64,000 nucleotides of DNA from Bdellovibrionales bacterium (GCA_965262715.1 OZ253553.1:32001-96000), one strand, 5' to 3'; positions 22,113-56,565 are shown, counted from the stretch's first letter. The notes: generated from the sequence alone by a model not told the origin. A program made the numbers and translations.

Positions 22113-22660
22113 GTCAAGCTCTTTAAAAACACCTTTAATTCTTTTTATCAATTCATCTTAACCTTCTACAACCAAATATCCTATATAATGTTCCTTGATA
22201 AACGAGAATTGTATAAAAGCAACATTGATACATCATATTTCTTAAATCATTAGAAAGGTAATTTTGTGTTAGTGAGTTTTTTGGTAAGGCTTTCTGATGA
22301 TGAAAATCCTTTTTTAATCCTCTTAATAGTCACTTTCTCAACATCAAATAAAATCTCCTTGGCGTGGGTAACCTGATCCAAGTAGCAATGATATGTTTAT
22401 GATAATTTTAATGAGTGTTTCCATTATTTCCTCTTTTTTTTAAAAAATTGTGTGTAAATATCCTTTATGATTTTATGCTTTCTTAAAGCCCTTAAAATAG
22501 AGCTTTTTGACGATGAATATTGAGTTAGCTTTTCAATATCACGAGTGGAAAACTTAAGATCAACATAAAGTTTTAAGTAAAATTTTAGCACTTTTTTCTG
22601 GAGTGTTAAGAAGATGTGTAATAAATAAAGATACATAACTAGAATTATCGGCGGAAATGC

Positions 22661-25003
22661 CTATAAACATAGCTGCTGAAATATTATAGATTTTAGTTTT
22701 TGACAATCTGTAGCCGTAGTGCCGCCGTTTGAGCCTACACAGTGCCATGTATAATGTGTATTTGTATCGGCTATCGCTGAGTCATTTGCTGTGCCAGAAG
22801 AACAACCATTTTGTTGACTGTTATTACAAACGCCGTTTACCGGTGCAGATTTTGCTTTTTGACAATTTGTAGCAGTAGTGCCGCCATTTGCACCTACGCA
22901 GTACCATCTATAATGTGTATTTGTATCTGCAATAGCGTTGTCATTAGCAGTACCAGCAGAGCAGCCATTTTGTTGGTTGTTATCACAAGCACCGTTAATA
23001 GGTTTTGCCTTTTGACAATTTGTAGCAGTAGTGCCGCCGTTTGAGCCTACACAGTGCCATGTATAATGTGTATTTGTATCGGCTATCGCTGAGTCATTTG
23101 CTGTGCCAGAAGAACAACCATTTTGTTGACTGTTATTACAAACGCCGTTTACCGGTGCAGATTTTGCTTTTTGACAATTTGTAGCAGTAGTGCCGCCATT
23201 TTTACCTACACAGTGCCATGTATAATGAGTATTTGTATCTGCTATAGCTGAGTCATTTGATGTGCCAGCAGAACAACCATTTTGTTGACTGTTATTACAA
23301 ACACCGTTAACAGGTTTTGCTTTTTGACAATTTGTAGCAGTGCTGCCTCCATTTGAACCTTCACAGTGCCATGTATAATGAGTGTTTGTATCGGCTATAG
23401 CTGCATCATTTGCTGTGCCCGAAGAACAACCATTTTGTTGACTGTTATTACAAACGCCGTTGACAGGAGGTATAGCTTTTGTACAACTTGCTGTTGCACC
23501 ACCATTTGAGCCAACACAATGCCATGTATAATGAGTACTTGTATCAGCTATTGCGCCGTCGTCTGGAGTCCCAGCAGTACAATCATTTCTGATGGTGTCA
23601 TCGCCGCAAACACCATTTATTGGTGCTGCTGTATCAATGGCCATACTGCAGCAACCTGTAGCATCAGTGCCATCGTTGGTACCTAAACACTGCCACTGAT
23701 AATGAGTTTCTGAATCATCTATGTCATTTAAAGTACCTTGAATACAACCATTTTTGACGGAGTTATTACATTCTCCATTTACGATTGAAGATGGATTGCG
23801 TGTAACAGCTTGGCCTAATATAGAATTGTCACAGGTCTGATAACTTAATGGACCAGGTAAAGGTCCGGAAAAATAACAATAGCTGCCATCTGATGGACAG
23901 TAATTATAATAAAACTGTTCAACTATATCATCTACCGAAGTTTGACTATCTATAGTGGTAGAAGAAGAGGTTGAAGCTTGTATTGCTATAGTACTTTTTA
24001 CACAGACTTCAGTTGAAGTGATGTCTATTACACCATCACTGCAATTTAGTACATCCTCACTGCCACTATCAATTTGAAATTCACATTGATTCGCATTTTG
24101 AATATTTGTATGTAATGTCCAAGTTCCACCTTCAGGTCTTAAATACTTATAAATGTTATTACTTTCTAACATCACAGCAATTTCTTCATCATTATGTTTA
24201 ATAGTTATTGGATTAAAATGAGGTTTAGAATTAGAGCTCACTTGCAAAACTTGTTTTCGATAGGTGAGGCAATCAGAATTGTCAGGATCTTCTGCAGACA
24301 CCTCAATAGTAACAGAACCAGTAGATTCATCGGTAAAGTCTAATTCAATACTTTCACTATCATCTTCGTTTGTCTCCTCAGTTGAAGAAGGTAATGTGAC
24401 TTTCCATATAATGTTCGAAAAATCTGTAGCATTCTTTAATTCAAAAGTGGCAGTCTGTCCAACAGTCAAAGAACCGCTTTCAAGAAAGATCTCTAAGACA
24501 TCTGTTAATGAGCATTCCTCACCAATCACGAGTTTTTTACTGGCCACAGTTAACAAATCGGAGTTTTTATAAGATGTAGCAAAAATATCATAACTTCCAG
24601 GTTTTTTAAATTGATATTGATATTCTGGTTCAGTTGTTGTCTCTTCTCCATCAGTAACAGTTTCAAAGGATCTAGTAATTTTCCATTTAAAATTTTCAGA
24701 ATCAGAATGACTATTCATAACCTTTAGTTTCACATCACTATCAATTAGGAAATAATCTTCTATCGAGATGCTTTCATCTTCTGATGGTAAATAAGCAATA
24801 ATATAACCTTTATCATTAGATACCGTTTGTTCAGAAAACAGGTTAGGAGCTTGACTTATATTTGAACCGCAGTTTTGAAAAGCTAATAACAATAAAAGTG
24901 AAGCCAATAGAAGTAGATAAAAAGCATTATTAAAACTTAACAAAAAATGCTTTTTTATGTTTTGTTTTTTTATAACCCTAAAGAATTTCATTATTTTTTT
25001 CAT
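22661..25003 (-). CDS. Cys-rich repeat lipoprotein, copy 1 (7 repeats)
   Basis: LLLLAFQNCG lipobox; PKD/Ig-like region (YQFKKPGSYDI); ~50-aa 4-Cys repeats NGVCNNSQQNGCSSGT..YTWHCVGSNGGTTATNC. Confidence 0.88.
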   Translation of the reverse strand: MKKIMKFFRVIKKQNIKKHFLLSFNNAFYLLLLASLLLLLAFQNCGSNISQAPNLFSEQTVSNDKGYIIAYLPSEDESISIEDYFLIDSDVKLKVMNSHSDSENFKWKITRSFETVTDGEETTTEPEYQYQFKKPGSYDIFATSYKNSDLLTVASKKLVIGEECSLTDVLEIFLESGSLTVGQTATFELKNATDFSNIIWKVTLPSSTEETNEDDSESIELDFTDESTGSVTIEVSAEDPDNSDCLTYRKQVLQVSSNSKPHFNPITIKHNDEEIAVMLESNNIYKYLRPEGGTWTLHTNIQNANQCEFQIDSGSEDVLNCSDGVIDITSTEVCVKSTIAIQASTSSSTTIDSQTSVDDIVEQFYYNYCPSDGSYCYFSGPLPGPLSYQTCDNSILGQAVTRNPSSIVNGECNNSVKNGCIQGTLNDIDDSETHYQWQCLGTNDGTDATGCCSMAIDTAAPINGVCGDDTIRNDCTAGTPDDGAIADTSTHYTWHCVGSNGGATASCTKAIPPVNGVCNNSQQNGCSSGTANDAAIADTNTHYTWHCEGSNGGSTATNCQKAKPVNGVCNNSQQNGCSAGTSNDSAIADTNTHYTWHCVGKNGGTTATNCQKAKSAPVNGVCNNSQQNGCSSGTANDSAIADTNTHYTWHCVGSNGGTTATNCQKAKPINGACDNNQQNGCSAGTANDNAIADTNTHYRWYCVGANGGTTATNCQKAKSAPVNGVCNNSQQNGCSSGTANDSAIADTNTHYTWHCVGSNGGTTATDCQKLKSIIFQQLCL

Positions 25004-25159: not shown

Positions 25160-25318
25160 TGTAACTTACGTACAAAAGTTACAGTATTAAGTTATTGAAA
25201 TAACTACCGATACAGGTATTGAAGGGCTTTAATTGCTAATAGTCTTTGGTGTAGAAAACGACCAAAAACATCAATGATTTTAAGGGGACAGGACTGTAAC
25301 TTATGTACGTAAGTTACA
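25160..25318. promoter_or_regulatory. Pair of 24-bp palindromic sites 135 bp apart in the module leader; also at 33517/33652, 45106/45241, 54265/54400
   Basis: TGTAACTT-ACGTACA(A/T)-AAGTTACA and TGTAACTT-ATGTACGT-AAGTTACA, each followed by ..AAGTTATTGA. Confidence 0.75.
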
Positions 25319-25405
25319 CTATCAAGTTATTGATTTTATTGAGTTATTCGAAGTTTCTATCTTTTTTCGATATGGCATTAAGGTCATGAAAAAGTCCAGG
25401 ACCGT

Positions 25406-26011
25406 TGTAAATTGATACAATATGTGCTTCTATGTGCCTTTCTTAAAAATAACTCCTTATATTTCCATTTTAGTGAGTTTTAAAGATTTCCTTAACATGA
25501 TGTAAGAGAATGAAGGGAGTCTCCTTACTAAAGAATAAACATGCTTTTGAGGTAGTCAGCTTTTTATTGAAGGTGTGAACCTTCAAGCTGATTAGATACA
25601 TTTAAAGAGTCTATTATCTATAAATTAAACACTGTAATCTTTAAAAATCTCAGTGAGACAAGCCTTAACGCTTGTCTATTCCAAAAGTGGTCAGAGACCA
25701 GTTTATTTTTAGTGAAACAATTGCAAATTGATACAATATGTGCTTCTATATGCCTTTCTTAAAAAAAACTTCTTATATTTCCATTTTAGTGAGTTTTAAA
25801 GATTTCCTTAACATGATGTAAGAGAATGAAGGGAGTCTCCTTACTAAAGAATAAACATGCTTTTGAGGTAGTCAGCTTTTTATTGAAGGTGTGAACCTTC
25901 AAGCTGATTAGATACATTTAAAGAGTCTATCATCTATAAATTAAACACTGTAATCTTTAAAAATCTCAGTGAGACAAGCCTTAACGCTTGTCTATTCCAA
26001 AAGTGGTCAGA
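25406..26011 (+). repeat. Structured tandem array A: two units, both the 316-bp form (second truncated)
   Basis: Unit starts at 25406 and 25722. Confidence 0.92.
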
Positions 26012-26276
26012 GTTAGGAGATGGATTGTTTTTTAGAAAAACAAGGAAAAATCTTTGGAGCAATGATTTTGATGTTTTAAGCCATTTCTGGAAGTCCTCGA
26101 TTGATCGCTTTGGTAGCGATCAATCTGCGGAAGATCTCGTCTTTGGCTTAAAACATCAACTCTTAATTCCTATGATAAAGATTATAGGTGATTTGTAAGG
26201 AGAAGAGACGGTAAGAGGAAGATTTCCTTAACATGATGTAAGAGAATGAAGGGAGTCTCCTTACTAAAAAATAAAC

Positions 26277-26462
26277 ATGCTTTTGAGAATGCCAGCATTA
26301 CAAATGATGAGAGATCGTATAAGGCAAGAAGCTCGACAGGAAGGGTTGCAGAAAGTTGCTATAAATCTTCTAAAAACAACTGATATGGATATACAAGCCA
26401 TAAGTAAAGCAACAGGGCTTTCAGAAAAAGAAGTCTTGCAAATTCAAAGCAAGTGCCAATAA
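26277..26462 (+). pseudogene. C-terminal fragment of an Rpn-family (recombination-promoting nuclease/putative transposase) protein
   Basis: RQEARQEGLQKVAINLLK..MDIQAISKATGLSEKEV is the typical Rpn C-terminal tail; fused to a partial repeat unit. Confidence 0.65.
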
Positions 26463-26987
26463 TGTACTTGTATCATTATATGACTTGTACAATACATACA
26501 TTTATACAACTCTATTTTCATTTGTTTATAAGAGGTAAAACTTTTTAGGAAGTTTGTTTCTAATCAAATAACGTAACTTCAAATGAGGTGCACCTTTTAT
26601 TTGGCCACCACTTCAAGTGAATTTTGTTTATTTCATCCTAAAAGCTCTAATAATGACAGTACAAAACTTTGCCGCACCTGCGCCTCATTCAGCTGTTTTA
26701 AGAAGGTTACGGCCTTCTGATGAGTGAGGTAGAATCTCGTTCTTAGAGATAAGATCATCATACTCACGACATAATAAATTTAGGTGTTCAGAACTGAAAT
26801 ATGACACAGTCATCCAAAATTGGATGAGTTTTTCAATATCACGAGTGGAAATCTTTAAATTGATGTAGAGTTTTAAGTAAAATCTCATCACTCTTTTCTG
26901 GAGTATTAGAAAAATGTGTAATAAATAAAGAGACATAGTTGGAGTCATAATTGGAGATATCTAAATATTGTATACTCCACCAATCCT

Positions 26988-28394
26988 GAGGATGTCCCAC
27001 GTTTCGGTGAAATTGAAGTTAAGCAGAGCTTGATGTTTTGCTACGCCTGTTTCTATTGTTAGTCAATAGGTTTAAATTTTCTTCCATTGTATTTAAATCT
27101 TTATACCCTTTAATAGCTCTAAACTTTTTTTCAGCTTCAACTAAAGAAGCAGCAGCCCATCTCATAACCTGATCTGGAGAACTTCTCCAGTTCTTAACCC
27201 TGCTGACTTTATCTCTTACAATAGAAAAAGCAGACTCAATAGGATTTGTAGAAGATAAGGTTCTCCTTAGCAGTGGAGATACCTTCAACTTGATAACTGT
27301 CAGTGTCTCCTCCTTTGCTTCCTTAAGTGAAGCCAATGCTGCATAATTAATCCTGCTTAACCAACTCAGTAACTTATTGTATTCTCTCTGAGCAGAATCA
27401 TAATCATTAAAACCATGCACCATCTTCCAGCGACGCTTAAACTCTAAATGACGTTCCTGAGGTAAATAACTTAAAACATTCCTCTCCTTGTGGTGAATAC
27501 AGCGTTGAACTACTGCTCTCTTACCAAAAACTCTATTAATAGCTGTCCTTAAAGATCTGCTACCATCAATTACAAAAAGGTAAGGCTTATCTGAACAAAG
27601 ACCTCTTGCTATTAAACTCTCTAATAAGTCCTTGCAAACTTCCCAGTTCTCTGTATGACCCTCTCTAAGACCCAGAACTAACTTCTTACCTTCAACTGTG
27701 ATGCCAAGAGCTACAACCACTGTCCTTGATCCAAAAACAACACCATCAATCATAATTGATGAAAACTTATCCTTACTCAGATCACGACCATTTAAAGATT
27801 CAAGAAACTTCCTAGATGACTTATTAAAGACTCTGCTCACTGTACTCTTAGAAAGACCCGTCCCTCCTACAATATCATCAAGAAGTTCATTGTAATTACG
27901 ACAAGATACCCCTCTCATAGCATGACTCAAAACTTTATCACAAAGTATGTCATACTTTTGAAGCACTGAATAAGACCGCAGCTTAATATCAGAACCTCCC
28001 TTCTCCTTCACCCTAGGCTTCCTCACCTGAAGCCTTTGACCTTGTGCAAGAACACTCCCAGAATCACTACCCGCTCTGTAATATCTTGTATCACGACCAC
28101 GACCATGACGCTTACCACACAGTGATAATAACTCATCCTCAAAGAAATCATGGATCATATTAATAACCATTGATCTCATGCGATGCTCTAGGATCTCTCG
28201 AATCTCATTTGACTCAGATGATAAAACTTGAATTGAATAACCATTCTTACTACTCTTCATAATAGCTCCTTTCTGTTATCTATTTCCTGATAAAATAAAA
28301 ACAGTAAACAACGGCTAGACCACTTAGGATAGCCGGGAGCTCTACTTTCTTCTAATTTCTATAAGAAAATTTCACCGATCTATGGGACAACCTC
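26988..28394 (-). mobile_element. IS256-family insertion sequence, complete
   Basis: IRs GAGGATGTCCCACGTTTCGGTGAAATT / AATTTCACCGATCTATGGGACAACCTC; 8-bp target duplication CCAATCCT at 26980-26987 and 28395-28402. Confidence 0.95.
27019..28260 (-). CDS. IS256 (Mutator) family transposase
   Basis: GVSCR, IMIDG, VIDGSRSL, QRCIHHKERN, STNPIES motifs. Confidence 0.95.
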   Translation of the reverse strand: MKSSKNGYSIQVLSSESNEIREILEHRMRSMVINMIHDFFEDELLSLCGKRHGRGRDTRYYRAGSDSGSVLAQGQRLQVRKPRVKEKGGSDIKLRSYSVLQKYDILCDKVLSHAMRGVSCRNYNELLDDIVGGTGLSKSTVSRVFNKSSRKFLESLNGRDLSKDKFSSIMIDGVVFGSRTVVVALGITVEGKKLVLGLREGHTENWEVCKDLLESLIARGLCSDKPYLFVIDGSRSLRTAINRVFGKRAVVQRCIHHKERNVLSYLPQERHLEFKRRWKMVHGFNDYDSAQREYNKLLSWLSRINYAALASLKEAKEETLTVIKLKVSPLLRRTLSSTNPIESAFSIVRDKVSRVKNWRSSPDQVMRWAAASLVEAEKKFRAIKGYKDLNTMEENLNLLTNNRNRRSKTSSSA

Positions 28395-28429
28395 CCAATC
28401 CTTTTGACCCTTATAAAATACTTGCTTCT

Positions 28430-28485
28430 CAAAATTATAACAGTAAGTTAACTCCTATAAAAGTCAACTTAAGGTGTCATGAACC
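28430..28485 (-). mobile_element. Solo IS1595-type left end
   Basis: Reverse complement GGTTCATGACACCTTAAGTTGACTT..GTTAACTTACTGTTAT resembles 17729-17780. Confidence 0.6.
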
Positions 28486-28595
28486 TACTAAATAATTGCG
28501 ATCAAGTTGGGATTTATCTAATATTGTTTAAGATTTGCACAAAATAATTTACAAGTTCTAAATTTGTGGTATATTTGTTGTTAGGTGGTGATATT

Positions 28596-28811
28596 ATGAA
28601 AGCTACAAAAAATAATTCTCCTATTTCTATAGACTTGACTGAAGACACCAAAAGTCTTCTTGAAAATTTCTGTAAGAAAAAAGAAATAGATATCAATGAT
28701 CTAGTTGAAAATGCAATACTTGAACACATTGAAGATGAAATGGATAGGTCTATCATTACAACGAGAGAACATGAAGAATTTGTTGAGTGGAAGAAAAAAA
28801 AGCACGCCTAG
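28596..28811 (+). CDS. RHH-type antitoxin (RelB-like)
   Basis: ISIDLTED.K.LLE..C......NDLVENAILEHIEDEMD; upstream of a RelE toxin. Confidence 0.7.
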   Translation: MKATKNNSPISIDLTEDTKSLLENFCKKKEIDINDLVENAILEHIEDEMDRSIITTREHEEFVEWKKKKHA

Positions 28812-29076
28812 ATGGAAAATAGTTTTTCAAAAATCGGCTTATAAAGAATATCAAAAGCTTCCTCAAAAATTTCAAGAGAAGATAGACAAACTCCTAGAAC
28901 GTCTTAAAATTAACCCTTTTGATGATGTTTTAAACTTCAGGAAAATTCAAGGAAGAGAGCATTTTTATAGAATTAGAGTCGGAAATTATAGAATTGTCTA
29001 TACATTAAAGAAATCCATATTAATCATATTTATTATCAGAATAGGTCACAGAAAAGATATTTACAAATTTTTTTAA
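28771..29076 (+). CDS. RelE/StbE family toxin (start uncertain)
   Basis: WKIVFQKSAYKEYQKLP, YRIRVGNYRIVY, RIGHRKDIY. Confidence 0.9.
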   Translation: MKNLLSGRKKSTPRWKIVFQKSAYKEYQKLPQKFQEKIDKLLERLKINPFDDVLNFRKIQGREHFYRIRVGNYRIVYTLKKSILIIFIIRIGHRKDIYKFF

Positions 29077-29343
29077 ATTACTCTTACTCTTATTTTGATT
29101 TTGTGCGTTCTTAAAGTTCTTAAAATAGAGCTTTTTGACGATGAATATTGAGTTAGCTTTTCAATATCACGAGTGGAAATCTTTAAATTGATGTAGAGTT
29201 TTAAGTAAAATCTCATCACTTTTTTCTGGAGTATTTAAAAAGTATGTAATAAACAAAGATACATAGCTAGAGTTATAAGTGGAGACGCACAAGACATCTT
29301 TACCAGATTTAAATATTGCTAAAAAAAGAATGAAGGATGTTTT

Positions 29344-29652
29344 ATGAAGAAAAAACATTATAAACCTGCAAAACCTTTTTTTAAGAAAATCCTTGAGGAT
29401 CCAGAAATACGTATTAAATATGAAGAAGAAAAAGCAAAAACTGAAATTGCTTTAATGGTTAAGAGAGCAAGAAAAAATGCTTTACTTACACAGTGTGAGT
29501 TAGCAGAGAAAATTGGAACGAGTCAAAGTGTTATTGCCAGACTAGAAGGGGGTCATGACTTATGTACACCATCACTTTCTTTGCTTTCTCGAATAGCTGG
29601 TGTTTGCGGCGGTATTTTAGAGCTTGGATTTGTTTTTAAAAAAAACTTATAA
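29344..29652 (+). CDS. XRE-family HTH protein (HigA-like antitoxin), with only the 3' tail of its toxin left upstream
   Basis: LTQCELAEKIGTSQSVIARLEGG...PSL; upstream 29291-29362 reads KTSLPDLNIAKKRMKDVYEEKTL*, like a Gp49/RelE toxin C-terminus. Confidence 0.8.
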   Translation: MKKKHYKPAKPFFKKILEDPEIRIKYEEEKAKTEIALMVKRARKNALLTQCELAEKIGTSQSVIARLEGGHDLCTPSLSLLSRIAGVCGGILELGFVFKKNL

Positions 29653-30111
29653 GATTTAACAAACTATTCTTTAAGAACTGTATTGTCATTCATAGTATGA
29701 TTTTGTGTTTTTTTAAAACCCTTAAAATAGAGCTTTTTGACGATGAATATTGAGTTAGCTTTTCAATATCACGAGTGGAAAGCTTGAGATCAACATACAA
29801 TTTTAAGTAAAATTTTAGCACTTTTTTCTGGAGTGTTAAGAAGATGTGTAATAAATAAAGATACATAACTAGAATTATCGGCGGAAATGCCTATAAACAT
29901 AGCTGCTGAAATATTATAGATTTTAGTTTTTGACAATCTGTAGCCGTAGTGCCGCCTCTTGAACCTACACAATGCCATGTATAATGTGTATTTGTATCTG
30001 AGATGGCTGCATCATTTGCTCTGCCAGCAGAGCAACCGTTTTGTTGACTCTCATCACAAACACCGTTTACTGGACAGGTTTTTGAATGTTCCAGGAAAAA
30101 ATTTAGAAATT

Positions 30112-33100
30112 TTACTTACGTTTGAAACATATTGCTGATGTACCGCCATTTGAACCTTCACAATGCCATCTATAGTGGCTGTCTGTATCTGGCGCGTCGT
30201 TTGCAGTGCCCGAAGAGCAGCTATTTTTTGGGTTTTTACGGGCGTTGCTACTACAAGCACCGTGTATTGGTGGTTTCGCTTTTTGACAATCTGTAGCAGT
30301 AGCACCGCCTTTTGCGCCCATACAGAGCCATGTATAATGTGTATCTGTATCATCTATTGCGCCATCGTCTGGAGTCCCAGAGCTGCAGCCATTTCGTTGG
30401 CTGTTATCACAAACTCCTTCGATGATACTTTTTAATCTAGTACAACTTTGATTTCCACCTCCATGCAAACCTTCACAAGTCCATAGATAAAGGGTGGAAT
30501 GTGTATTATCTGGCAATGCCTTTGCAGTCCCAGCAGAGCAACCATTTCTTTGACTTTGATCACAAACGGCATCGATAGGTATCAGCTTTTGACAATCTAT
30601 AGCAGTAGTGCCGCCATTTGCACCTATGCAGTACCATGTATAATGTGTATTTGTATCTGCAATAACGCCGTCGTTTGGAGTGCCGGAAGAGCAGCTATTT
30701 TGTTTACTGTTATCACAAACGCCATGGATAGGCATTAGTTTTTGACAACTTTGTGCTGTAGTGCCGCCGTTTGCACCTACGCAGTGCCATCTATAATGAG
30801 TATTTGTATCGGCTATTGCGCCATCGTTTGCAGTGCCCGAAGAACAGTCATTTCTTTGAGCATTATTACAAGCACCGTTAATAGATTTTGCCTTTTGACA
30901 ATTTTGTGCTGTAGTGCCGCCGTTTGCACCTACGCAGTGCCATGTATAATGTGTATTTGTATCTGTTATAACTGCATCATTTGCTCTGCCGGAAGAACAG
31001 CTATTTCTTTGACTGTTATTACAAACGCCGTTAATAGGTTTTGCCTTTTGACAATTTGTAGCAGTACTGCCGCCATTTGAACCTTCACAATGCCATGTAT
31101 AATGAGTGTTTGTATCGGCTATAGCTGAGTCATTTGCTCTGCCAGCAGTACAGCTATTTCTTTGGCTGTTATTACAAACACCGTTTACTGGTGCAGGTTT
31201 CTCTTTTTGACAATTTTGTGCTGTAGTGCCGCCATTTGTACCTACACAGTGCCATGTATAATGTGTATTTGTATCAGCTATAGCTAAGTCACTTGCTGTG
31301 CCGGAAGAACAACCATTTTGTTGACTGTTATTACAAACACCGTTGACTGGTGCAGGTTTCGCTTTTTGACAATTTGTAGCTGTACTGCCTCCATTTGCAC
31401 CTACACAGTGCCATGTATAATGAGTATTTGTATCTGCTATCGCTGAGTCATTTGCAGTTCCAGAAGAACAACCATTTTGTTGACTGTTATTACAAACGCC
31501 GTTTACTGGTGCAGGTTTCGCTTTTTGACAATTTGTAGCTGTACTGCCTCCATTTGCACCTACACAGTGCCATGTATAATGAGTATTTGTATCTGCTATC
31601 GCTGAGTCATTTGCAGTTCCAGAAGAACAACCATTTTGTTGACTGTTATTACAAACGCCGTTTACTGGTGCAGATTTTGCTTTTTGACAATTTGTAGCAG
31701 TGCTGCCTCCATTTGAACCTTCACAGTGCCATGTATAATGAGTGTTTGTATCGGCTATAGCTGCATCATTTGCTGTGCCCGAAGAACAACCATTTTGTTG
31801 ACTGTTATTACAGACGCCATTGACAGGGATAGCTTTTGTACAACTTGCTGTTGCACCACCATTTGAGCCAACACAATGCCATGTATAATGAGTACTTGTA
31901 TCAGCTATTGCGCCGTCGTCTGGAGTCCCAGCAGTACAATCATTTCTGATGGTGTCATCGCCGCAAACACCATTTATTGGTGCTGCTGTATCAATGGCCA
32001 TACTGCAGCAACCTGTAGCATCAGTGCCATCGTTGGTACCTAAACACTGCCACTGATAATGAGTTTCTGAATCATCTATGTCATTTAAAGTACCTTGAAT
32101 ACAACCATTTTTGACGGAGTTATTACATTCTCCATTTACGATTGAAGATGGATTGCGTGTAACAGCTTGGCCTAATATAGAATTGTCACAGGTCTGATAA
32201 CTTAATGGACCAGGTAAAGGTCCGGAAAAATAACAATAGCTGCCATCTGATGGACAGTAATTATAATAAAACTGTTCAACTATATCATCTACCGAAGTTT
32301 GACTATCTATAGTGGTAGAAGAAGAGGTTGAAGCTTGTATTGCTATAGTACTTTTTACACAGACTTCAGTTGAAGTGATGTCTATTACACCATCACTGCA
32401 ATTTAGTACATCCTCACTGCCACTATCAATTTGAAATTCACATTGATTCGCATTTTGAATATTTGTATGTAATGTCCAAGTTCCACCTTCAGGTCTTAAA
32501 TACTTATAAATGTTATTACTTTCTAACATCACAGCAATTTCTTCATCATTATGTTTAATAGTTATTGGATTAAAATGAGGTTTAGAATTAGAGCTCACTT
32601 GCAAAACTTGTTTTCGATAGGTGAGGCAATCAGAATTGTCAGGATCTTCTGCAGACACCTCAATAGTAACAGAACCAGTAGATTCATCGGTAAAGTCTAA
32701 TTCAATACTTTCACTATCATCTTCGTTTGTCTCCTCAGTTGAAGAAGGTAATGTGACTTTCCATATAATGTTCGAAAAATCTGTAGCATTCTTTAATTCA
32801 AAAGTGGCAGTCTGTCCAACAGTCAAAGAACCGCTTTCAAGAAAGATCTCTAAGACATCTGTTAATGAGCATTCCTCACCAATCACGAGTTTTTTACTGG
32901 CCACAGTTAACAAATCGGAGTTTTTATAAGATGTAGCAAAAATATCATAACTTCCAGGTTTTTTAAATTGATATTGATATTCTGGTTCAGTTGTTGTCTC
33001 TTCTCCATCAGTAACAGTTTCAAAGGATCTAGTAATTTTCCATTTAAAATTTTCAGAATCAGAATGACTATTCATAACCTTTAGTTTCACATCACTATCA

Positions 33101-44949: not shown

Positions 44950-45351
44950 TGCTCTATACTTTCATCATCGTTGTATTACGAACCTTCTTTTATGTGCTAT
45001 GTGGTGCTAGTTGTCTAAAAACTTGAAAGGTAAAATGAATAAAAATATCAAAAATGTAAATCTTTAAAACCAAGCCAAAAGACTGGGTTTTTAGCCTGCC
45101 TAGACTGTAACTTACGTACATAAGTTACAGTATTAAGTTATTGAAATAACTACCGATACAGGTATTGAAGGGCTTTAATTGCTAATAGTCTTTGGTGTAG
45201 AAAACGACCAAAAACATCAATGATTTTAAGGGGACAGGACTGTAACTTATGTACGTAAGTTACACTATCAAGTTATTGATTTCATTGAGTTATTCGAAGT
45301 TTCTATCTTTTTTCGATATGGCATTAAGGTCATGAAAAAGTCCAGGACCGT

Positions 45352-45930
45352 TGCAAATTGATACAATATGTGCTTCTATGTGCCTTTTTTAAAAATAACT
45401 CCTTATATTTCCATTTTAGTGAGTTTTAAAGATTTCCTTAACATGATGTAAGAGAATGAAGGGAGTCTCCTTACTAAAGAATAAACATGCTTTTGAGGTA
45501 GTCAGTTTTTTATTGAAGGTGTGAACCTTCAAGCTGACTACCCAAAAGTGGTCAGAGACCAGTTTATTTTTAGTGAAACAATTGCAAATTGATACAATAT
45601 GTGCTTCTATGTGCCTTTCTTAAAAAAAACTTCTTATATTTCCATTTTAGTGAGTTTTAAAGATTTCCTTAACATGATGTAAGAGAATGAAGGGAGTCTC
45701 CTTACTAAAAATAAACAAGTTTTTGAGGCAATCAGCATTTTGCTGACAGGGATACATCCCGTAGTGTTAACTGTCACGCTGATTGCCCAAAAATAGCCAG
45801 AGGCTAGTTCATTTTTAGTGAAACAATTGCAAATTGATACAATATGTGCTTCTATATGCCTTTTTTGAAAATAACTCCTTATATTTCCATTTTAGTAAGA
45901 AAAAACACAAGAAAAAGATTTCCCTATTAC
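45352..45930 (+). repeat. Structured tandem array C: 231-bp unit, 245-bp variant unit, partial unit
   Basis: Unit starts at 45352, 45583, 45828. Confidence 0.9.
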
Positions 45931-48520: not shown

Positions 48521-48621
48521 TGCTTTATTATGATACTCATTTACTACTTAGTTAATTTAGTTAATAATGGGCTATCATTTAATTTATACCGATAATAAAC
48601 ATAGGGGAACTTGAGACTTAT

Positions 48622-49311
48622 ATGAAAAAAATAAAATTGGAAAAAACTTCAATAGTTTTATTAACACAAGGTTACGTATCACCTGTAACTCATGATTTTT
48701 TAATTACTCAAAAGATAATTCCTAGTCAAGATTCAGGGTTTCAACTAATTCCAAATATTTCTTTTTTTGCTCCTCCTATAAGTCAGATGATTTTTCAAAA
48801 TGGACTTAGCATCATTAATGATCCAGAAAAAATAATATTCCAAGTATCAAAAGGTTCTGTTACAGAAAATGAACAAGAACATTGCTTAAGTTTATTACAG
48901 GATATATCTTCAAAATATGTTGAGTCTGAACCTTTTAAAAGTGCAAGATATCTAGCTATAGGAATTAATCTTCATTTTATAAGAGATGATTTAATCTTTA
49001 ACCCTTTTATTGAAAAGTCTATAACATCAGATAGTCCATGTTGGTTTTTTGAATCTCAAGGTAGTAAAGGTAAAGTCAATGATATCAAATTCTCTTACTT
49101 TTATGATAACAAGCAAGTCAATGTAACTATTAGCAAGCTCCCTTTCGTTACTCATCCTCAAAATAAAAGTAATGATCAAAATTCTGTTTCACGCTTTGAT
49201 GTAAATGTACATTATAATCAACCCAATAATCATACTAATATAAATAAAATCATCAAAGAAATTAGAGAAGACTACCAAAAATCAAAACACTTCATAGGAG
49301 GTCTTAAATGA
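48622..49311 (+). CDS. Hypothetical protein, possibly TIGR04255/SecB-like fold
   Basis: SIVL..G...P......L, AIGIN and FDVNVH motifs; first gene of an overlapping 3-gene operon. Confidence 0.45.
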   Translation: MKKIKLEKTSIVLLTQGYVSPVTHDFLITQKIIPSQDSGFQLIPNISFFAPPISQMIFQNGLSIINDPEKIIFQVSKGSVTENEQEHCLSLLQDISSKYVESEPFKSARYLAIGINLHFIRDDLIFNPFIEKSITSDSPCWFFESQGSKGKVNDIKFSYFYDNKQVNVTISKLPFVTHPQNKSNDQNSVSRFDVNVHYNQPNNHTNINKIIKEIREDYQKSKHFIGGLK

Positions 49312-50012
49312 AATCTACTTTTAATGAGAATTTATTTCATTTGTTTCACAGGCAAAACTCTTTCACTGAAACCCCATCCTTAATCAATGACCAAGTAACA
49401 AACGATATTAGTAAAACAACTGCACCTTTTCCAACTCCTTATAAAACACTGATTTCCATTTTGTCAACAGGGCCTTATAAAACTCTTTTAGATAAAGAAA
49501 ATAAACTTACTTCCTTTATTGATAGTAATTTGTCTAGATACTTTTTGGATAAGAAAAAATTCGACAATCTTTATAAAGACTTAGATAACTTACATAAAGA
49601 ATGTGAAGAAGAAGGGTATGAAGTATTTAATGAAATAGCAAGAGCAAATGCTAAGAAAGTTTTAGACTTTTTATTTAAAGAAATCCCTGCTTTTGATTAT
49701 TATATTTATTCTACAGCGGATCGTGAAATTGCCATTGATTACACTCAAGATGAAGGTTCAGGAAAAGGACTATTGATACTGTGTGCTTCTGATGGAACAA
49801 TAACTTACTTTAAAACCTACAATGGGACAAATACTAGTACCTGTCTTAAAAGTATTGATAACATCATTAATTTTTGTGAAAAATTAAAAGAAGCTTTCAA
49901 ACAATTTGAAATTAAAAACCCTTATATTACTACTGACTTCGAAGAAGACAAGAAGGGTATTAAAAGCGTTTGGATTAATCTTAATAATCTCATAAGTCAA
50001 AGTAAAATTTGA
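49308..50012 (+). CDS. Hypothetical protein, middle gene of operon
   Basis: 234-aa ORF with 4-bp overlaps to both neighbours. Confidence 0.65.
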   Translation: MKSTFNENLFHLFHRQNSFTETPSLINDQVTNDISKTTAPFPTPYKTLISILSTGPYKTLLDKENKLTSFIDSNLSRYFLDKKKFDNLYKDLDNLHKECEEEGYEVFNEIARANAKKVLDFLFKEIPAFDYYIYSTADREIAIDYTQDEGSGKGLLILCASDGTITYFKTYNGTNTSTCLKSIDNIINFCEKLKEAFKQFEIKNPYITTDFEEDKKGIKSVWINLNNLISQSKI

Positions 50013-50461
50013 TAATGAGACTTTGCATGCCTACTGAATATATTGAGAATGATGAGCTACTTGGTAGGGGAGTTTTTTCAGAAAGACGTGCTAAATTAGC
50101 TGAGAAAGGAAAACTGACATTTGATAGATTTAAAGAAAAGCACCCATCTATTCCTATTTCAGTAGATCGCTTTGGTTTTTGCTCAGATAAAGATTTGACC
50201 AACATTCAAGACAAAGCAGCAAAATTAAGAAAAGGAAATAACGGAAAAACACAATTTTTTTATGGATGGTTTCAAATGAAAGCAGAAAACATTCGAAAAA
50301 AGGGTAGAGAAGTTAAACCTGACAAAACTGAAGACAATCCTTACCATGCTGAAATCTCTTTACCTGAAAATATAAAAAATAATGAATGGATAAAACACGC
50401 AAAAGAGCTTGCATCCTATTCTAAATGGCGTTCTAGAAAAAATAATATTGAAAATACATGA
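50009..50461 (+). CDS. Hypothetical protein with ADP-ribosyltransferase/RES-like motif pattern
   Basis: ELLGR...F...ISVDR...NPYHAEI (R..S..H spacing). Confidence 0.5.
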   Translation: MIMRLCMPTEYIENDELLGRGVFSERRAKLAEKGKLTFDRFKEKHPSIPISVDRFGFCSDKDLTNIQDKAAKLRKGNNGKTQFFYGWFQMKAENIRKKGREVKPDKTEDNPYHAEISLPENIKNNEWIKHAKELASYSKWRSRKNNIENT

Positions 50462-51498
50462 TATATATAATAATGTACCTTAAAAAACCTTTGTCAAATT
50501 AATAAGTTTTAACCTAAAACTCAATATTTTCTAAATATCATTTTAATTGAACTATTGTTAATAGTACATAGACAATAAAACTTAAAGGAAATAAAAATCT
50601 ATATGAAAGAAAAAAGATTTGATAAATCTTATAAAACTTTAGAGCATTTACATAAAAAAGACACGAAATATTTGACAAAATAGCAAGACAAATGTCAATC
50701 ATAAATAATCTAAGAGCAATCAAATAATTATTGATTCCTTCTAGTATCACAAGTATAATTTAAAAAAGGTTATCTTATTTTAAAAAACCAATATTAAGGT
50801 TCAAGTTTGTATAAATAGTTCTATGTTCATAAGTATCTTAGACCTTATATCCGACAACATAAGAAACAAAAATATTATAGACTCATATATAGCATAGGTG
50901 TCTATATCCTAAATCATCAGAAAGGTAGCTTTGTACTAGTCAGTTTTCTAGAAAGTTGTTCTGATGATGAAAATCCTTTTTTGATCCTCTCAGTGGTTAT
51001 CTTCTCAACATCAAATAAAAACTCTTTGGCAAAATAACCCGACTCTAATAGTAATGATATATTTATAATCAATTTAATGAGTGTCTCCACTTTTCCTCCT
51101 TTTGCAAAAATTATAGTTTATAAATATCCTTTATGATTTTGTACCTTCTTAAAGCTCTTAAAATAGAGCTTTTTGAACATAAAAATTGAGTTAGCTTTTC
51201 AATATCACGAGTGGAAAGCTTGAGATCAACATAAAGTTTTAAGTAAAATTTTAGGATTTATTTCTGGAGTGTTAAGAAGATGTGTAATAAATAAAGATAC
51301 ATAACTAGAACTATCGGAGGAAATGCCTATAAACAAGGCTATTGCAATATAAGTTTTAGTTTTCGACAACCTGTAGCCGTAGTGCCGCCATTTGAACCTA
51401 CACAATGCCATCTGTAATGTGTATTTGTATCGGCATAGCTGCATCATTTGCTCTGCCAGCAGAGCAACCGTTTTGTTGACTCTCATCACAAACACCGT

Positions 51499-54108
51499 TT
51501 ACTGGTCTGGTATCGCTTTTTGACAATCTGTAGCAGTAGTGCCGCCTCTTCTACCTTCACAATGCCATCTATAGTGAGTACTTGTATCAGCTATAGCTCT
51601 GTCATTAGAAATTCCAGTAGTACAGCCATTTCTTTGGCTGTTATTACAAACTCCGGTGATAGGTTTTAGTCTCAAACAATTTGCTGTTCTACCTCCATGC
51701 AAACCTTCACAATGCCATCTATGATAGGCTGTATCTGAAAGTGCTTTTGCAGTGCCCGAAGAGCAACCATTCCTTTGACTCGTATCACAAACGCCATGGA
51801 TAGGTTTCCGTATCTGACAATTTGTTACAGTACTGCCACCATGCAGCCCTACACAATGCCATGTATAATGAGTATTTGTATCTGCTATTACGTCGTCGTT
51901 TGCTGTGCCCGAAGAGCAACCATTCCTTTGATTTTCATCACAAACACCATCGATAGGAGGAGGTATCAGTTTTTGACAATCTGTAGCCGTAGTGCCGCCA
52001 TTTAAACCTACACAGTGCCATGTATAATGTGTATTTGTATCTGCTATTACGGCATCGTTTGCAGTACCAGCAGTACAACCATTTTGTTGACTGTTATCAC
52101 AAACACCGTTAACAGGTTTTGCTTTTTGACAATTCGTAGCTGTAGTGCCGCCATTTGTACCTTCACAGTGCCATGTATAATGAGTACTTGTATCTGCTAT
52201 CGCTGCATCATTTGCTCTGCCAGCAGTACAGTTATTTCTTTGGCTGTTATTACAAACTCCGGTGATAGGTTTTAGTCTCAAACAATTTGCTGTTCTACCT
52301 CCATGCAAACCTTCACAATGCCATCTATGATAGGCTGTATCTGAAAGTGCTTTTGCAGTGCCCGAAGAGCAACCATTCCTTTGACTCGTATCACAAACGC
52401 CATGGATAGGTTTCCGTATCTGACAATTTGTTACAGTACTGCCACCATGCAGCCCTACACAATGCCATGTATAATGAGTATTTGTATCTGCTATTACGTC
52501 GTCGTTTGCTGTGCCCGAAGAGCAACCATTCCTTTGATTTTCATCACAAACACCATCGATAGGAGGAGGTATCAGTTTTTGACAATCTGTAGCCGTAGTG
52601 CCGCCATTTAAACCTACACAGTGCCATGTATAATGAGTACTTGTATCAGCTATTGCGCCGTCGTCTGGAGTCCCAGCAGTACAACCATTTTTGATGGTGT
52701 CATCGCCGCAAACACCATTTATTGGTGCTGCTGTATCAATGGCCATACTGCAGCAACCTGTAGCATCAGTGCCATCGTTGGTACCTAAACACTGCCACTG
52801 ATAATGAGTTTCTGAATCATCTATTAAAGTACCTTGAATACAACTATTCTTAACGGAGTTATTACATTCTCCATTTACGATTGAAGATGGATTGCGTGTA
52901 ACACTCTGGCTTAATATAGAATTGTCACAGGTCTGATAACTTAATGGACCAGGTAAAGGTCCGGAAAAATAACAATAGCTGCCTTCTGATGGACAGTAAT
53001 TATAATAAAACTGTTCAATTATATCATCTGCATCATCTACCGAAGTTTGACTATCTATAGTGGTAGAAGAAGAGGTTGAAGCTTGTATTGCTATAGTACT
53101 TTTTACACATGATTCACTTGAAGTGATATCTATTACACCATCACTGCAATTTAGTACATCCTCACTGCCACTATCAATTTGAAGTTCACATTGATTCGCA
53201 TTTTGAATATTTGTATGTAATGTCCAAGTTCCACCTTCAGGTCTTAAATATTTATAAATGTTATTACTTTCTAACATCACAGCAATTTCTTCATCATTAT
53301 GTTTAATAGTTATTGGATTAAAATGAGGTTTAGAATTAGAGCTCACTTGCAAAACTTGTTTTCGATAGGTGAGGCAATCAGAATTGTCAGGATCTTCTGC
53401 AGACACCTCAATAGTAACAGAACCAGCAGATTCATTGGTAAAGTCTAATTCAATACTTTCACTATCATCTTCGTTTGTCTCCTCAGTTGAAGAAGGTAAT
53501 GTGACCTTCCATAAGATGTTCGAAAAATCTATAGCATTCTTTAATTCAAAAGTGGCAGTCTGTCCAACAGTCAAAGAACCGCTTTCAAGAAAGATCTCTA
53601 AGACATCTGTTAATGAGCATTCCTCACCAATCACAAGTTTTTTACTGGCCACAGTTAACAAATCGGAGTTTTTATAAGATGTAGCAAAAATATCATAACT
53701 TCCAGGTTTTTTAAATTGATATTGATATTCTGGTTCAGTTGTTGTCTCTTCTCCATCAGTAACAGTTTCAAAGGATCTAGTGATTTTCCATTTAAAATTT
53801 TCAGAATCAGAATGACTATTCATAACCTTTAGTTTCACATCACTATCAATTAGGAAATAATCTTCTATCGAGATGCTTTCATCTTCTGATGGTAAATAAG
53901 CAATAATATAACCTTTATCATTAGATACCGTTTGTTCAGAAAACAAGTTAGGAGCTTGACTTACATTTGAACCGCAGTTTTGAAAAGCTAATAACAATAA
54001 AAGTGAAGCCAATAGAAGTAGATAAAAGGCATTATTAAAACTTAACAAAAAATGCTTTTTTATGTTTCGTTTTTTTATAACCCTAAAGAATTTCATTATT
54101 CTTGTCAT
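51499..54108 (-). CDS. Cys-rich repeat lipoprotein, copy 4 (9 repeats plus a frameshifted tenth)
   Basis: Same N-terminal half; internal 606-bp-period duplication; ends KAIPDQ* where PVNGVCDESQ continues out of frame. Confidence 0.86.
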   Translation of the reverse strand: MTRIMKFFRVIKKRNIKKHFLLSFNNAFYLLLLASLLLLLAFQNCGSNVSQAPNLFSEQTVSNDKGYIIAYLPSEDESISIEDYFLIDSDVKLKVMNSHSDSENFKWKITRSFETVTDGEETTTEPEYQYQFKKPGSYDIFATSYKNSDLLTVASKKLVIGEECSLTDVLEIFLESGSLTVGQTATFELKNAIDFSNILWKVTLPSSTEETNEDDSESIELDFTNESAGSVTIEVSAEDPDNSDCLTYRKQVLQVSSNSKPHFNPITIKHNDEEIAVMLESNNIYKYLRPEGGTWTLHTNIQNANQCELQIDSGSEDVLNCSDGVIDITSSESCVKSTIAIQASTSSSTTIDSQTSVDDADDIIEQFYYNYCPSEGSYCYFSGPLPGPLSYQTCDNSILSQSVTRNPSSIVNGECNNSVKNSCIQGTLIDDSETHYQWQCLGTNDGTDATGCCSMAIDTAAPINGVCGDDTIKNGCTAGTPDDGAIADTSTHYTWHCVGLNGGTTATDCQKLIPPPIDGVCDENQRNGCSSGTANDDVIADTNTHYTWHCVGLHGGSTVTNCQIRKPIHGVCDTSQRNGCSSGTAKALSDTAYHRWHCEGLHGGRTANCLRLKPITGVCNNSQRNNCTAGRANDAAIADTSTHYTWHCEGTNGGTTATNCQKAKPVNGVCDNSQQNGCTAGTANDAVIADTNTHYTWHCVGLNGGTTATDCQKLIPPPIDGVCDENQRNGCSSGTANDDVIADTNTHYTWHCVGLHGGSTVTNCQIRKPIHGVCDTSQRNGCSSGTAKALSDTAYHRWHCEGLHGGRTANCLRLKPITGVCNNSQRNGCTTGISNDRAIADTSTHYRWHCEGRRGGTTATDCQKAIPDQ

Positions 54109-54510
54109 TGCTCTATACTTTCATCATTGTTGTATTACGAACCTTCTTTTATGTGCTATGTGCTGCTAGTTGTCCAAAAATTTGAAAGGTAAAATAAGTA
54201 AAAATATCAAAAATGTAAATCTTTAAAACCAAGCCAAAAGACTTGGTTTTTAGCCTACCTGGACTGTAACTTACGTACAAAAGTTACAGTATTAAGTTAT
54301 TGAAATAACTACCGATACAGGTATTGAAGAGCTTTAATTGCTAATAGTCTTTGGTGTGGAAAATGACCAAAAACATCAATGATTTTAAGGGGTCAGGACT
54401 GTAACTTATGTACGTAAGTTACACTATCAAGTTATTGATTTCATTGAGTTATTCGGAATTTCTATCTTTTCTCGATATGGCATTAAGGTCATGAAAAAGT
54501 CCAGGACCGT

Positions 54511-56565
54511 TGCAAATTGATACAATATATGCCTCTATATGCCTTTTTTGAAAATAACTCCTTATATTTCCATTTTAGTGAGTTTTAAAGATTTCCTTAA
54601 CATGATGTAAGAGAATGAAGGGAGTCTCCTTACTAAAGAATAAACATGCTTTTGAGGTAGTCAGTTTTTTATTGAAGGTGTGAACCTTCAAGCTGACTAC
54701 CCAAAAGTGGTCAGAGACCAGTTTATTTTTAGTGAAACAATTGCAAATTGATACAATATATGCCTCTATATGCCTTTTTTGAAAATAACTCCTTATATTT
54801 CCATTTTAGTGAGTTTTAAAGATTTCCTTAACATGATGTAAGAGAATGAAGGGAGTCTCCTTACTAAAGAATAAACATGCTTTTGAGGTAGTCAGTTTTT
54901 TATTGAAGGTGTGAACCTTCAAGCTGACTACCCAAAAGTGGTCAGAGACCAGTTTATTTTTAGTGAAACAATTGCAAATTGATACAATATATGCCTCTAT
55001 ATGCCTTTTTTGAAAATAACTCCTTATATTTCCATTTTAGTGAGTTTTAAAGATTTCCTTAACATGATGTAAGAGAATGAAGGGAGTCTCCTTACTAAAG
55101 AATAAACATGCTTTTGAGGTAGTCAGTTTTTTATTGAAGGTGTGAACCTTCAAGCTGACTACCCAAAAGTGGTCAGAGACCAGTTTATTTTTAGTGAAAC
55201 AATTGCAAATTGATACAATATATGCCTCTATATGCCTTTTTTGAAAATAACTCCTTATATTTCCATTTTAGTGAGTTTTAAAGATTTCCTTAACATGATG
55301 TAAGAGAATGAAGGGAGTCTCCTTACTAAAGAATAAACATGCTTTTGAGGTAGTCAGCTTTTTATTGAAGGTGTGAACCTTCAAGCTGACTACCCAAAAG
55401 TGGTCAGAGACCAGTTTATTTTTAGTGAAACAATTGCAAATTGATACAATATGTGCTTCTATATGCCTTTTTTGAAAATAACTCCTTATATTTCCATTTT
55501 AGTGAGTTTTAAAGATTTCCTTAACATGATGTAAGAGAATGAAGGGAGTCTCCTTACTAAAGAATAAACATGCTTTTGAGGTAGTCAGCTTTTTATTGAA
55601 GGTGTGAACCTTCAAGCTGACTACCCAAAAGTGGTCAGAGACCAGTTTATTTTTAGTGAAACAATTGCAAATTGATACAATATGTGCTTCTATGTGCCTT
55701 TCTTAAAAATAACTCCTTATATTTCCATTTTAGTGAGTTTTAAAGATTTCCTTAACATGATGTAAGAGAATGAAGGGAGTCTCCTTACTAAAGAATAAAC
55801 ATGCTTTTGAGGTAGTCAGTTTTTTATTGAAGGTGTGAACCTTCAAGCTGACTACCCAAAAGTGGTCAGAGACCAGTTTATTTTTAGTGAAACAATTGCA
55901 AATTGATACAATATGTGCTTCTATGTGCCTTTCTTAAAAATAACTCCTTATATTTCCATTTTAGTGAGTTTTAAAGATTTCCTTAACATGATGTAAGAGA
56001 ATGAAGGGAGTCTCCTTACTAAAGAATAAACATGCTTTTGAGGTAGTCAGCTTTTTATTGAAGGTGTGAACCTTCAAGCTGATTAGATACATTTAAAGAG
56101 TCTATCATCTATAAATTAAACACTGTAATCTTTAAAAATCTCAGTGAGACAAGCCTTAACGCTTGTCTATTCCAAAAGTGGTCAGAGACCAGTTTATTTT
56201 TAGTGAAACAATTGCAAATTGATACAATATGTGCTTCTATATGCCTTTTTTGAAAATAACTCCTTATATTTCCATTTTAGTGAGTTTTAAAGATTTCCTT
56301 AACATGATGTAAGAGAATGAAGGGAGTCTCCTTACTAAAAATAAACAAGTTTTTGAGGCAATCAGCATTTTGCTGACAGGGATACATCCCGTAGTGTTAA
56401 CTGTCACGCTGATTGCCCAAAAATAGCCAGAGGCTAGTTCATTTTTAGTGAAACAATTGCAAATTGATACAATATATGCTTCTATGTGCCTTTCTTGAAA
56501 ATAACTCCTTATATTTTCTTTTTAGTAAGAAAAAACACAAGAAAAAAATTTCCTTAACATTTGCG
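54511..56565 (+). repeat. Structured tandem array D: six 231-bp units, one 316-bp unit, one 245-bp unit and a partial unit
   Basis: Unit starts at 54511, 54742, 54973, 55204, 55435, 55666, 55897, 56213, 56458. Confidence 0.95.

Follow-up and report, generated by a model that had tools for sequence, protein, structure and literature searches.

The stretch of DNA considered here (the window) covers 64,000 nucleotides of a Bdellovibrionales bacterium, G000:C1:32001-96000, where G000 denotes the genome and G001 that of its congener. Four paralogous genes for repeat-bearing, predicted lipoproteins lie in the window, each preceded by a leader, and our analysis makes it likely that these genes are gated by flip-able promoters, that is, that the surface proteins phase-vary by promoter inversion. 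An earlier reading of the same DNA (the original prediction) had described a four-fold module of lipoprotein gene, palindromic leader and tandem array. The control element that it missed is likely an invertible promoter inside this leader.

The layout of the locus was confirmed. The open reading frame (ORF) on the minus strand, the leader and the array follow each other in the claimed order in all four modules, and the numbers of repeats per protein (7, 13, 13, and 9) and of units per array (2, 4, 2, and 8) were as predicted. No part of the module is specific to this locus. In the G000 genome, a single contig of 2.94 Mb with zero N and a guanine-plus-cytosine (GC) content of 33.6%, the gene with its leader occurs 8 times and the site pair in the leader 18 times, and the core of the array gives 456 non-overlapping hidden Markov model (HMM) hits. 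As each part belongs to a separate dispersed family, we treat the parts of the module one at a time. The four genes of the window are as follows:

22661..25003, minus strand: lipoprotein copy 1, 780 aa, 7 repeats
30112..33360, minus strand: lipoprotein copy 2, 1082 aa, 13 repeats
41725..44949, minus strand: lipoprotein copy 3, 1074 aa, 13 repeats
51499..54108, minus strand: lipoprotein copy 4, 869 aa, 9 repeats, with a three-repeat block duplicated internally

Paired inverted sites around a promoter-like segment

The leader beyond each ORF is 402 bp long and 95.8-96.8% identical to that of module 4. It holds two 24-bp dyads, TGTAACTTW-core-WAAGTTACA, 135 bp apart, which delimit the predicted switches:

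25160..25183, no strand: gene-proximal site of switch 1, core CGTACA
25184..25294, plus strand: putative invertible segment of switch 1, 111 bp, with a predicted sigma-28-type promoter at 25187-25212 directed away from the gene (presumed OFF)
25295..25318, no strand: gene-distal site of switch 1, core TGTACG (inverted)
33517..33675, no strand: switch 2, sites 33517-33540 and 33652-33675, predicted promoter 33544-33569 on the plus strand, away from the gene
45106..45264, no strand: switch 3, sites 45106-45129 and 45241-45264, predicted promoter 45133-45158 on the plus strand, away from the gene
54265..54423, no strand: switch 4, sites 54265-54288 and 54400-54423, predicted promoter 54292-54317 on the plus strand, away from the gene

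The site pattern had 39 exact matches in G000 and 0 for a reversed control, which excludes chance as the origin of the sites. Each of 249 other genomes contained 0 or 1 exact site, compared with 39 in G000 and 51 in G001. Thirty-six of the 39 sites in G000 form 18 pairs with a distance of 135-136 bp, and 3 are unpaired. These pairs precede 8 copies of the lipoprotein gene, 8 type IV pilin genes, and 2 giant pilin-like genes. The asymmetric 6-bp cores of the partners are inverted matches of each other in 18/18 pairs, and over 8 bp this holds in only 9/18. Matching inverted cores are the geometry for inversion by a tyrosine recombinase (see also PMC5357621).

A reversed segment was found at a pilin locus, G000:1186614. 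When set against the reverse complement of the twin at 1719674, its inner 111 bp had 0 mismatches, compared with 69 in the same orientation, and the 200 bp of the left flank were identical. All 18 segments carry the motif T[TC]AAG-N15-CCGATA, which points away from the gene in 17 (including all four window copies) and toward it in 1. The consensus of the attack-phase sigma factor FliA of B. bacteriovorus is given as TTAAG-N16-CCGATA in the accessible part of the source (PMC3627812), and G000 codes for a FliA-family sigma factor above the cut-off. A sigma-28-like motif is present inside the segment in 18/18 pairs of G000 and in 22/22 pairs of G001 among the matches listed, with the N15 spacing in G000 as opposed to the published N16. 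When the motif was counted by spacing in G000, there were 25 matches with N15, 19 with N16, 11 with N20, and 2-6 with most of the others. Thirteen of the 19 N16 motifs are located within 300 bp upstream of a gene on the same strand, among them several FQNC-type lipoprotein genes and also kinase-like genes. In a loose scan of the whole genome, sigma-28 motifs were not enriched upstream of genes (16 sense vs 21 antisense), whereas those with the N16 spacing were. Sigma-70-like promoters in the leader were not above chance (3 found, 3.2 expected). Each switch site is adjoined by a box that resembles the site for integration host factor (IHF). The sigma-28-like motif may be a working promoter, and with it in its present orientation all four window copies would be OFF in the assembled consensus.

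Exchange between loci at the switch sites was not supported by the single-nucleotide polymorphism patterns, which shift there in 2/8 copies, but also many times inside the gene. Elsewhere in G000, two inverted sites share the symmetric core TATATA; separated by 6.1 kb and located between two divergent pilin operons (G000:C1:1006327-1012472), they possibly form a larger inversion switch.

A second predicted switch family in the congener

Among the matches listed for G001, the exact sites form at least 22 pairs, 344-346 bp apart, which mostly precede pilin genes. The core is TGTATA, and the inner segment of 320-322 bp is unrelated in sequence to that of G000 and carries the motif TAAAG-N16-[AC]CGATA. 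Again among the matches listed, the segment is directed away from the gene in 20/22 pairs and toward it in 2/22, with fixed flanks. Both orientations, with precise boundaries, are thus present among paralogous loci in G000 as well as in G001.

Lone unpaired sites were observed at four G001 loci (L039, L046, L050, and L051) before genes that start with MKKYIFILFI. Possibly they are products of recombination between switch sites of different loci. A further genome, G004, appeared to be an independent carrier of the lipoprotein and the array repeat that lacks recombinase and sites. It was rejected as such: although the genome is filed under another genus, its contigs C11, C1, and C4 are syntenic with G000 at about 91% identity, and its RplN shares 98% identity with that of G000 and 76% with that of its own congener. 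The three contigs are probably mis-binned, and G004 was dropped as a control.

A small tyrosine recombinase and its native site

G000 and G001 each contain exactly two genes of the Phage_integrase family, which in G000 code for a 185-aa recombinase and a 320-aa XerD-like protein. The smaller one is the predicted switch enzyme:

G000:892897-893454: 185-aa recombinase

One of the three unpaired sites of G000 is located 153 bp past the 3' end of this gene, which is single-copy in 51/61 genomes of the order. A site matrix was built from 12 seed sites, none of them from G000 or G001, and applied to the 30 best recombinase loci. It found a site beside the recombinase gene in 24/30 loci, comprising the 12 seeds by leave-one-out and 12/18 held-out loci; the 6 loci without a matrix site include G001. 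Twenty-three of the 24 native sites lie upstream of the recombinase gene, and most have the core TAGTTA, covarying arms and an adjoining IHF-like box. On G000, the matrix ranked the native site first and placed 35/36 switch sites within its top 41 hits. From this site identity alone, we infer that the 185-aa enzyme flips the switches. Its sequence contains catalytic-type motifs, and it did not pass the models for the FimB/FimE tyrosine invertases (43.5 and 35.7 bits vs cut-offs of 222 and 221). A search for related loci with the recombinase as query returned 2 distant, uninformative loci.

It is also conceivable, and in our view unlikely, that the switches are real and are flipped by the 320-aa XerD-like recombinase, or that both enzymes are needed. 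Both genomes carry the two Phage_integrase-family genes, the 6-bp core is Xer-like in size, and the 185-aa protein is short and far below the FimB/FimE-type cut-offs. Against this, the site family travels with the small recombinase gene (24/30 loci), its arms are near-symmetric, as for a single enzyme, and in G058 a canonical dif-like site is present separately, at a distance of 12 kb from that of the small recombinase. A dif-like site has also been predicted for B. bacteriovorus HD100, according to the accessible text of that report (PMC2731167).

The distance between the native site and the local GC-skew maximum is 9 kb in G058 and 6 kb in G046 (complete genomes of the same genus), about 19 kb in G009, where the skew is weak, and 125 kb in G000. 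G000 also has a second site with the TAGTTA core (G000:C1:218718-218761), which is inverted relative to the native site 674 kb away and could support a large chromosomal inversion. The small recombinase is kept by most of the order and is unstudied, and the switch system gives a handle on the enzyme.

Proposed mechanism and points for and against it

In the proposed mechanism, the 111-bp segment between the inverted sites would act as an invertible promoter for the adjoining lipoprotein gene. The 185-aa recombinase, aided by the IHF-like boxes, would flip this segment, and only the copies with the promoter facing the gene would be expressed. The re-coded cores (CGTACA in G000 and TGTATA in G001, compared with TAGTTA at the native site) would keep the switches from recombining with the native site. 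Inversion may be ongoing. We give an even chance to a wider proposal, in which the genus has converted the terminus-linked recombinase and single site of the order into a genome-wide combinatorial switchboard. The site would have been copied 40-50 times with an insulating re-coded 6-bp core, and pairs of it would enclose a sigma-28 promoter of the attack phase, the inner segments differing between the two species. These pairs would lie before genes for pilins and for a range of adhesin-like lipoproteins made of an unclassified four-Cys repeat, so that single cells show different prey- or phage-contacting surfaces.

Several observations weigh against promoter inversion at these genes. The N15 spacing is one shorter than the Bdellovibrio consensus, and the -35 element coincides in part with the conserved IHF-like box, which leaves the -10 element as the only independent evidence. 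Of the 8 lipoprotein copies in G000, not one is in the ON orientation, the flipped example there being a pilin locus, and a hairpin with T-runs sits in the would-be ON leader. The sigma-28 regulon is not calibratable on flagellar genes because G000 has no flagellin match. In G001, no site was found beside the recombinase gene, nor a good site with the TAGTTA core. Contigs from 7 runs gave no inversion joint (lipoprotein switch 4, flipped pilin switch 4), a result that is uninformative either way because the contigs break at the sites.

Alternatively, the paired palindromes might be operators of a dimeric regulator of surface-protein genes, and the reversed segments rare fixed recombination accidents at short inverted repeats. 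The dominance of one orientation (17/18 in G000, and 20/22 in G001 among the matches listed) and the lack of a joint in the contigs would agree with this. However, an operator needs no invariant asymmetric core that is inverted between partners, as seen in 18/18 pairs, and the three independent precise reversals in the two genomes all turn the promoter toward the gene. Single-copy relatives of the site, moreover, adjoin a recombinase gene and not surface genes. We regard the operator explanation as quite improbable and retain promoter inversion.

The lipoprotein family

The original prediction of surface-protein diversification, with a constant N-terminal anchor and variable tips, was supported. 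G000 contains 8 near-identical lipoprotein copies, 4 of them outside the window, together with more distant paralogues. The first 1350 nt of the four window ORFs are 95.6-100% identical, and the C-termini of all 8 copies differ, the proximal repeats being common, the distal repeats diverging and the tips being mosaic. The C-termini of relatives diverge likewise, and related proteins of 1005-1236 aa with other tips are present in other assemblies. Recombination among the repeats and among the paralogues is the likely source of changes in repeat number and tip identity.

Copies 1 and 2 are 100% identical across the first 1350 nt. A silent out-of-gene Cys repeat lies past the stop codon in copies 2, 3, 4, and 6, and the last repeat of copy 1 runs into the tail that is silent behind copy 2. 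Because it reads into the same tail, copy 1 is likely a contracted duplicate of copy 2 formed by internal deletion. The identity of these two copies, and the 608 bp that their arrays share at 99.5%, could also indicate that part of the four-fold repetition, notably copy 1, is an assembly artefact. This is very improbable: the divergence of the other copies is 2.7-4.4%, their tips and cargo are unique, the genome is one contig without N, and the related proteins with other tips come from other assemblies. The eighth lipoprotein copy (G000:C1:2736758-2738911) has an early stop at 717 aa, with more repeats past the stop.

The N-terminus consists of a hydrophobic helix (residues 23-43) followed by FQNC with Cys45. 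This arrangement is nearly invariant in 24 homologues, and the putative lipobox is non-canonical. The constant region contains predicted beta-sandwich domains (weak PKD_3 match; model predicted local distance difference test score, pLDDT, 75). The tail repeat is about 51 aa long with four invariant Cys and one Trp, and a two-repeat model reached a pLDDT of 91.7. No structural match to this model was found (best Z 3.1; no Foldseek match below E 2.6), which does not in itself demonstrate a new fold. The full-length model matched only generic Ig-like stacks, with template modelling scores of at most 0.15, and the ESM Atlas gave PKD-like leads below 0.9 for the N-terminus and no named match for the repeats. 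The four-Cys repeat was found in 691 representative proteins and has no Pfam family. Of 30 repeat proteins scanned, 14 also carry Ig, FN3, cadherin, FG-GAP, RCC1, Calx-beta, or S8 domains, and the co-occurrence of such partner domains fits an extracellular role. The four-Cys repeat is a candidate new extracellular module, and the lipoproteins may function in adhesion.

Arrays and the dispersed hairpin repeat

An array is present in each module as predicted, and the description of all arrays as 231-bp repeats has to be corrected. The units are 231, 245, or 316 bp long, and module 1 has no 231-bp unit at all:

25405..26012, plus strand: array 1, two 316-bp-type units (83-bp flank plus dispersed hairpin repeat with insert)
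33762..34854, plus strand: array 2, units of 231, 231, 316, and 316-type
45351..45899, plus strand: array 3, units of 231 and 245 bp, then a partial flank
54510..56529, plus strand: array 4, six units of 231, one of 316, and one of 245 bp, and a partial flank; dispersed element of unit 1 at 54588-54740

Each unit is composed of about 83 bp of local flank and a hairpin element of about 150 bp, whose HMM hits make up 2.1% of G000. The element is abundant in G001 and was not found in 38/40 relatives searched, the other carrier being the probably mis-binned G004. Its 3' 105 bp form a predicted three-way junction, which is preceded by a 5' extension. In this fold, 3950/4162 cells show Watson-Crick pairing and 24/36 pairs vary in a compensatory manner in 116 distinct copies, the structure being taken from the same alignment. 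Of 300 full copies, 6 are located within ORFs. The junctions of tandem units fall exactly at the 3' end of the element, and the starts of the units vary upstream. Duplications of the upstream flank, of variable length (30-88 bp in most), follow 21/148 non-internal copies, compared with 29/2000 random positions.

The hairpin element resembles the short, high-copy intergenic hairpin repeats with tandem arrays known as repetitive extragenic palindromes (REP/REPIN) and transposable elements of the miniature inverted-repeat type (MITEs), as described in the accessible parts of two reports (PMC3337134, PMC3184786). It differs from them in its three-way-junction fold and in the lack of terminal inverted repeats and of a RAYT-like enzyme common to the carriers. 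Like a REP/REPIN, it is a high-copy extragenic palindrome with conserved pairing, and an association with a RAYT (Y1 HUH) protein was not seen. Unlike a MITE, it has unrelated ends without terminal inverted repeats or a fixed target-site duplication. Nor is it a CRISPR or guide-RNA array: the spacers are copies of one local flank, and there was no Rfam match at gathering score. A mobilising enzyme common to the carriers was not found by searches for Y1/RAYT, reverse transcriptase, and HUH/YxDD motifs or by proximity to insertion sequences (IS). Y1_Tnp was represented by one short IS200-type gene in G000 and was not detected in G001, which also showed no reverse transcriptase.

The original prediction had further proposed that array length tunes the expression of each copy and that interleaved toxin-antitoxin (TA) genes hold the modules against collapse. 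The array length indeed varies (2, 4, 2, and 8 units), and TA or defence genes lie between all modules. The hairpin repeat is on the far side of 14/18 switches, compared with 15.5% of genes that have one within 300 bp, the cassettes being copies of each other. In contrast, the arrays lie beyond the promoter from the gene and outside the ON transcript, and the repeat occurs about 450 times in the genome, including in arrays unrelated to these genes. Four of the 18 switches have no repeat within 700 bp, among them those of two lipoprotein copies, and in G001 the repeat can also separate the pilin gene from its switch, whichever the orientation. The window is likewise full of TA genes outside the modules. 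Tuning by the arrays was thus not supported, and we consider this explanation extremely improbable. With promoter inversion, the arrays are likely tandem expansions downstream of an OFF-facing promoter that are not placed to tune ON expression, and the hairpin repeat may damp OFF read-through.

Hairpin repeats were also observed near other genes. Thirteen of the 38 transfer RNA (tRNA) genes of G000 have one within 150 bp, several abutting the tRNA end, and one copy has at its flank a 30-bp sequence that perfectly duplicates a tRNA-like 3' end. An array in a ribosomal-protein operon (G000:C1:2842750-2843519), just before rplN, has the duplicated 3' end of the upstream gene as its spacer.

Presumed tail remnants and cargo

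The 450-bp repeat that the original prediction assigned to each module reaches its full length only in modules 1 and 4, and in the other two it measures about 190 bp:

22240..22660, minus strand: tail remnant of module 1, with an ORF at 22424-22636 that starts just after a core like the tRNA-Ala 3' end
29696..30111, minus strand: short tail remnant and silent Cys repeat behind copy 2
41375..41724, minus strand: tail remnant and silent Cys repeat behind copy 3
50903..51498, minus strand: tail remnant and silent Cys repeat behind copy 4

The repeat encodes a truncated ORF of the helix-turn-helix (HTH) type with 26 tblastn hits in the genome, and each of its 9 loci in the window has minus-strand orientation. 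In two other genomes, weak homologues (E about 3e-4) extend into the Pfam family Recombinase (PF07508). A motif scan of G000 found no intact integrase for it, and a search for longer homologues was empty. These data are compatible with, and not decisive for, a decayed tail remnant of a serine integrase or recombinase.

The predicted cargo was largely right, except that an IS30-type transposase and a DDE fragment had not been listed and that the three-gene operon has no convincing family match:

26277..29652, no strand: cargo 1, Rpn-like tail, IS256, ParE/RelE-type pair, HTH gene, and two further tail remnants
35377..41251, plus strand: cargo 2, AAA_14 plus DUF4143 ATPase (PADLOC PDC-S01), DDE fragment, and IetA/IetS
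47466..50461, no strand: cargo 3, IS30-type transposase and three genes without a convincing family match
57431..58790, minus strand: cargo 4, AbiEii and AbiEi

In cargo 1, the match of the Rpn-like tail is weak (E 8.6e-5), and the ParE/RelE-type toxin has a DUF6290 partner. TA and defence genes, which separate all modules, also occur elsewhere in the window; this fits a pile of decayed islands equally well as stabilisation by TA genes. Clustering of the proteins of the whole genome showed that G000 is rich in IS families. The clusters include about 45 presumed Rpn-like genes or fragments and IS families of 40, 28, 15, and 14 members, names that we assigned from the appearance of the sequences. 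The region looks like a stack of decayed islands with defence genes into which the gene-plus-switch cassette has been copied.

Two other features were observed in the window. The three overlapping genes at 48622-50461, without a convincing match in Pfam, NCBIfam, or PADLOC, have related copies elsewhere in G000. A 105-bp tandem repeat of 4.4 copies (60849-61305) is located at the 3' end of a 502-aa ankyrin-like ORF of the secreted type.

Comparison with known systems

Phase variation by promoter inversion is known from pathogens and gut commensals. If the present reading is true, a bacterium related to predatory ones uses stochastic switches, linked to the attack-phase sigma factor, to hedge its pilins and adhesin-like lipoproteins, and the 185-aa enzyme acts on a compact 24-bp site with a core that appears re-codable. 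A literature search, which most subscription papers lay outside, found no description of promoter-inversion switching in Bdellovibrionota, and one Bdellovibrio paper, in its accessible part, merely speculates on invertible promoters (PMC2797640). The lipoproteins are similar to the MAT fibre adhesins of B. bacteriovorus in being surface proteins with varied tips, which have been proposed for prey recognition (PMC10769870). They differ in their lipid anchor, Ig/PKD-like domains and four-Cys repeats, and inversion switching of MAT genes is not described in the accessible part of that report (PMC10769870).

With 36-44 bits against cut-offs of 221-222, the small recombinase is unlike FimB and FimE. 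It is like them in size, FimB and FimE having about 200 aa. In the Vpma system of Mycoplasma agalactiae, the genes are shuffled behind one promoter at one locus, whereas here each gene would have its own invertible promoter. The two systems would be alike in that variable surface lipoproteins are switched by a tyrosine recombinase, Xer1 in the case of Vpma, as far as the accessible text describes it (PMC2268961). Similarly, fimS of E. coli, switched by FimB/FimE, is a short invertible promoter with inverted repeats before a surface-structure gene, with IHF sites adjacent to and within the switch, where only predicted IHF-like boxes are present here (PMC8777976). Whereas fimS has 9-bp repeats (PMC8777976), the switches described here have 24-bp dyads with a 6-bp core and a predicted sigma-28-type promoter, and 18-22 of them are scattered around the chromosome, far from the recombinase gene.

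The single-copy recombinase gene next to a dyad site is reminiscent of XerS/difSL and XerH/difH (PMC5357621) and of XerL (PMC9765430), as presented in the accessible parts of these papers. Unlike XerS and XerH, with about 355 aa (PMC5357621), the enzyme has 185 aa. In addition, a dif-like site coexists in G058, and the native site lies 125 kb away from the G000 skew maximum and could not be detected in G001. Finally, the system agrees with the promoters controlled by Mpi and by tyrosine recombinases in Bacteroides, in which one global enzyme is thought to act on many dispersed surface switches, as outlined in the accessible part of the report (PMC12632263). It differs from them in phylum, site and enzyme and in its targets, which are type IV pilins and repeat lipoproteins, and all of its sites go back to one conserved site that adjoins a recombinase gene of housekeeping-like character.

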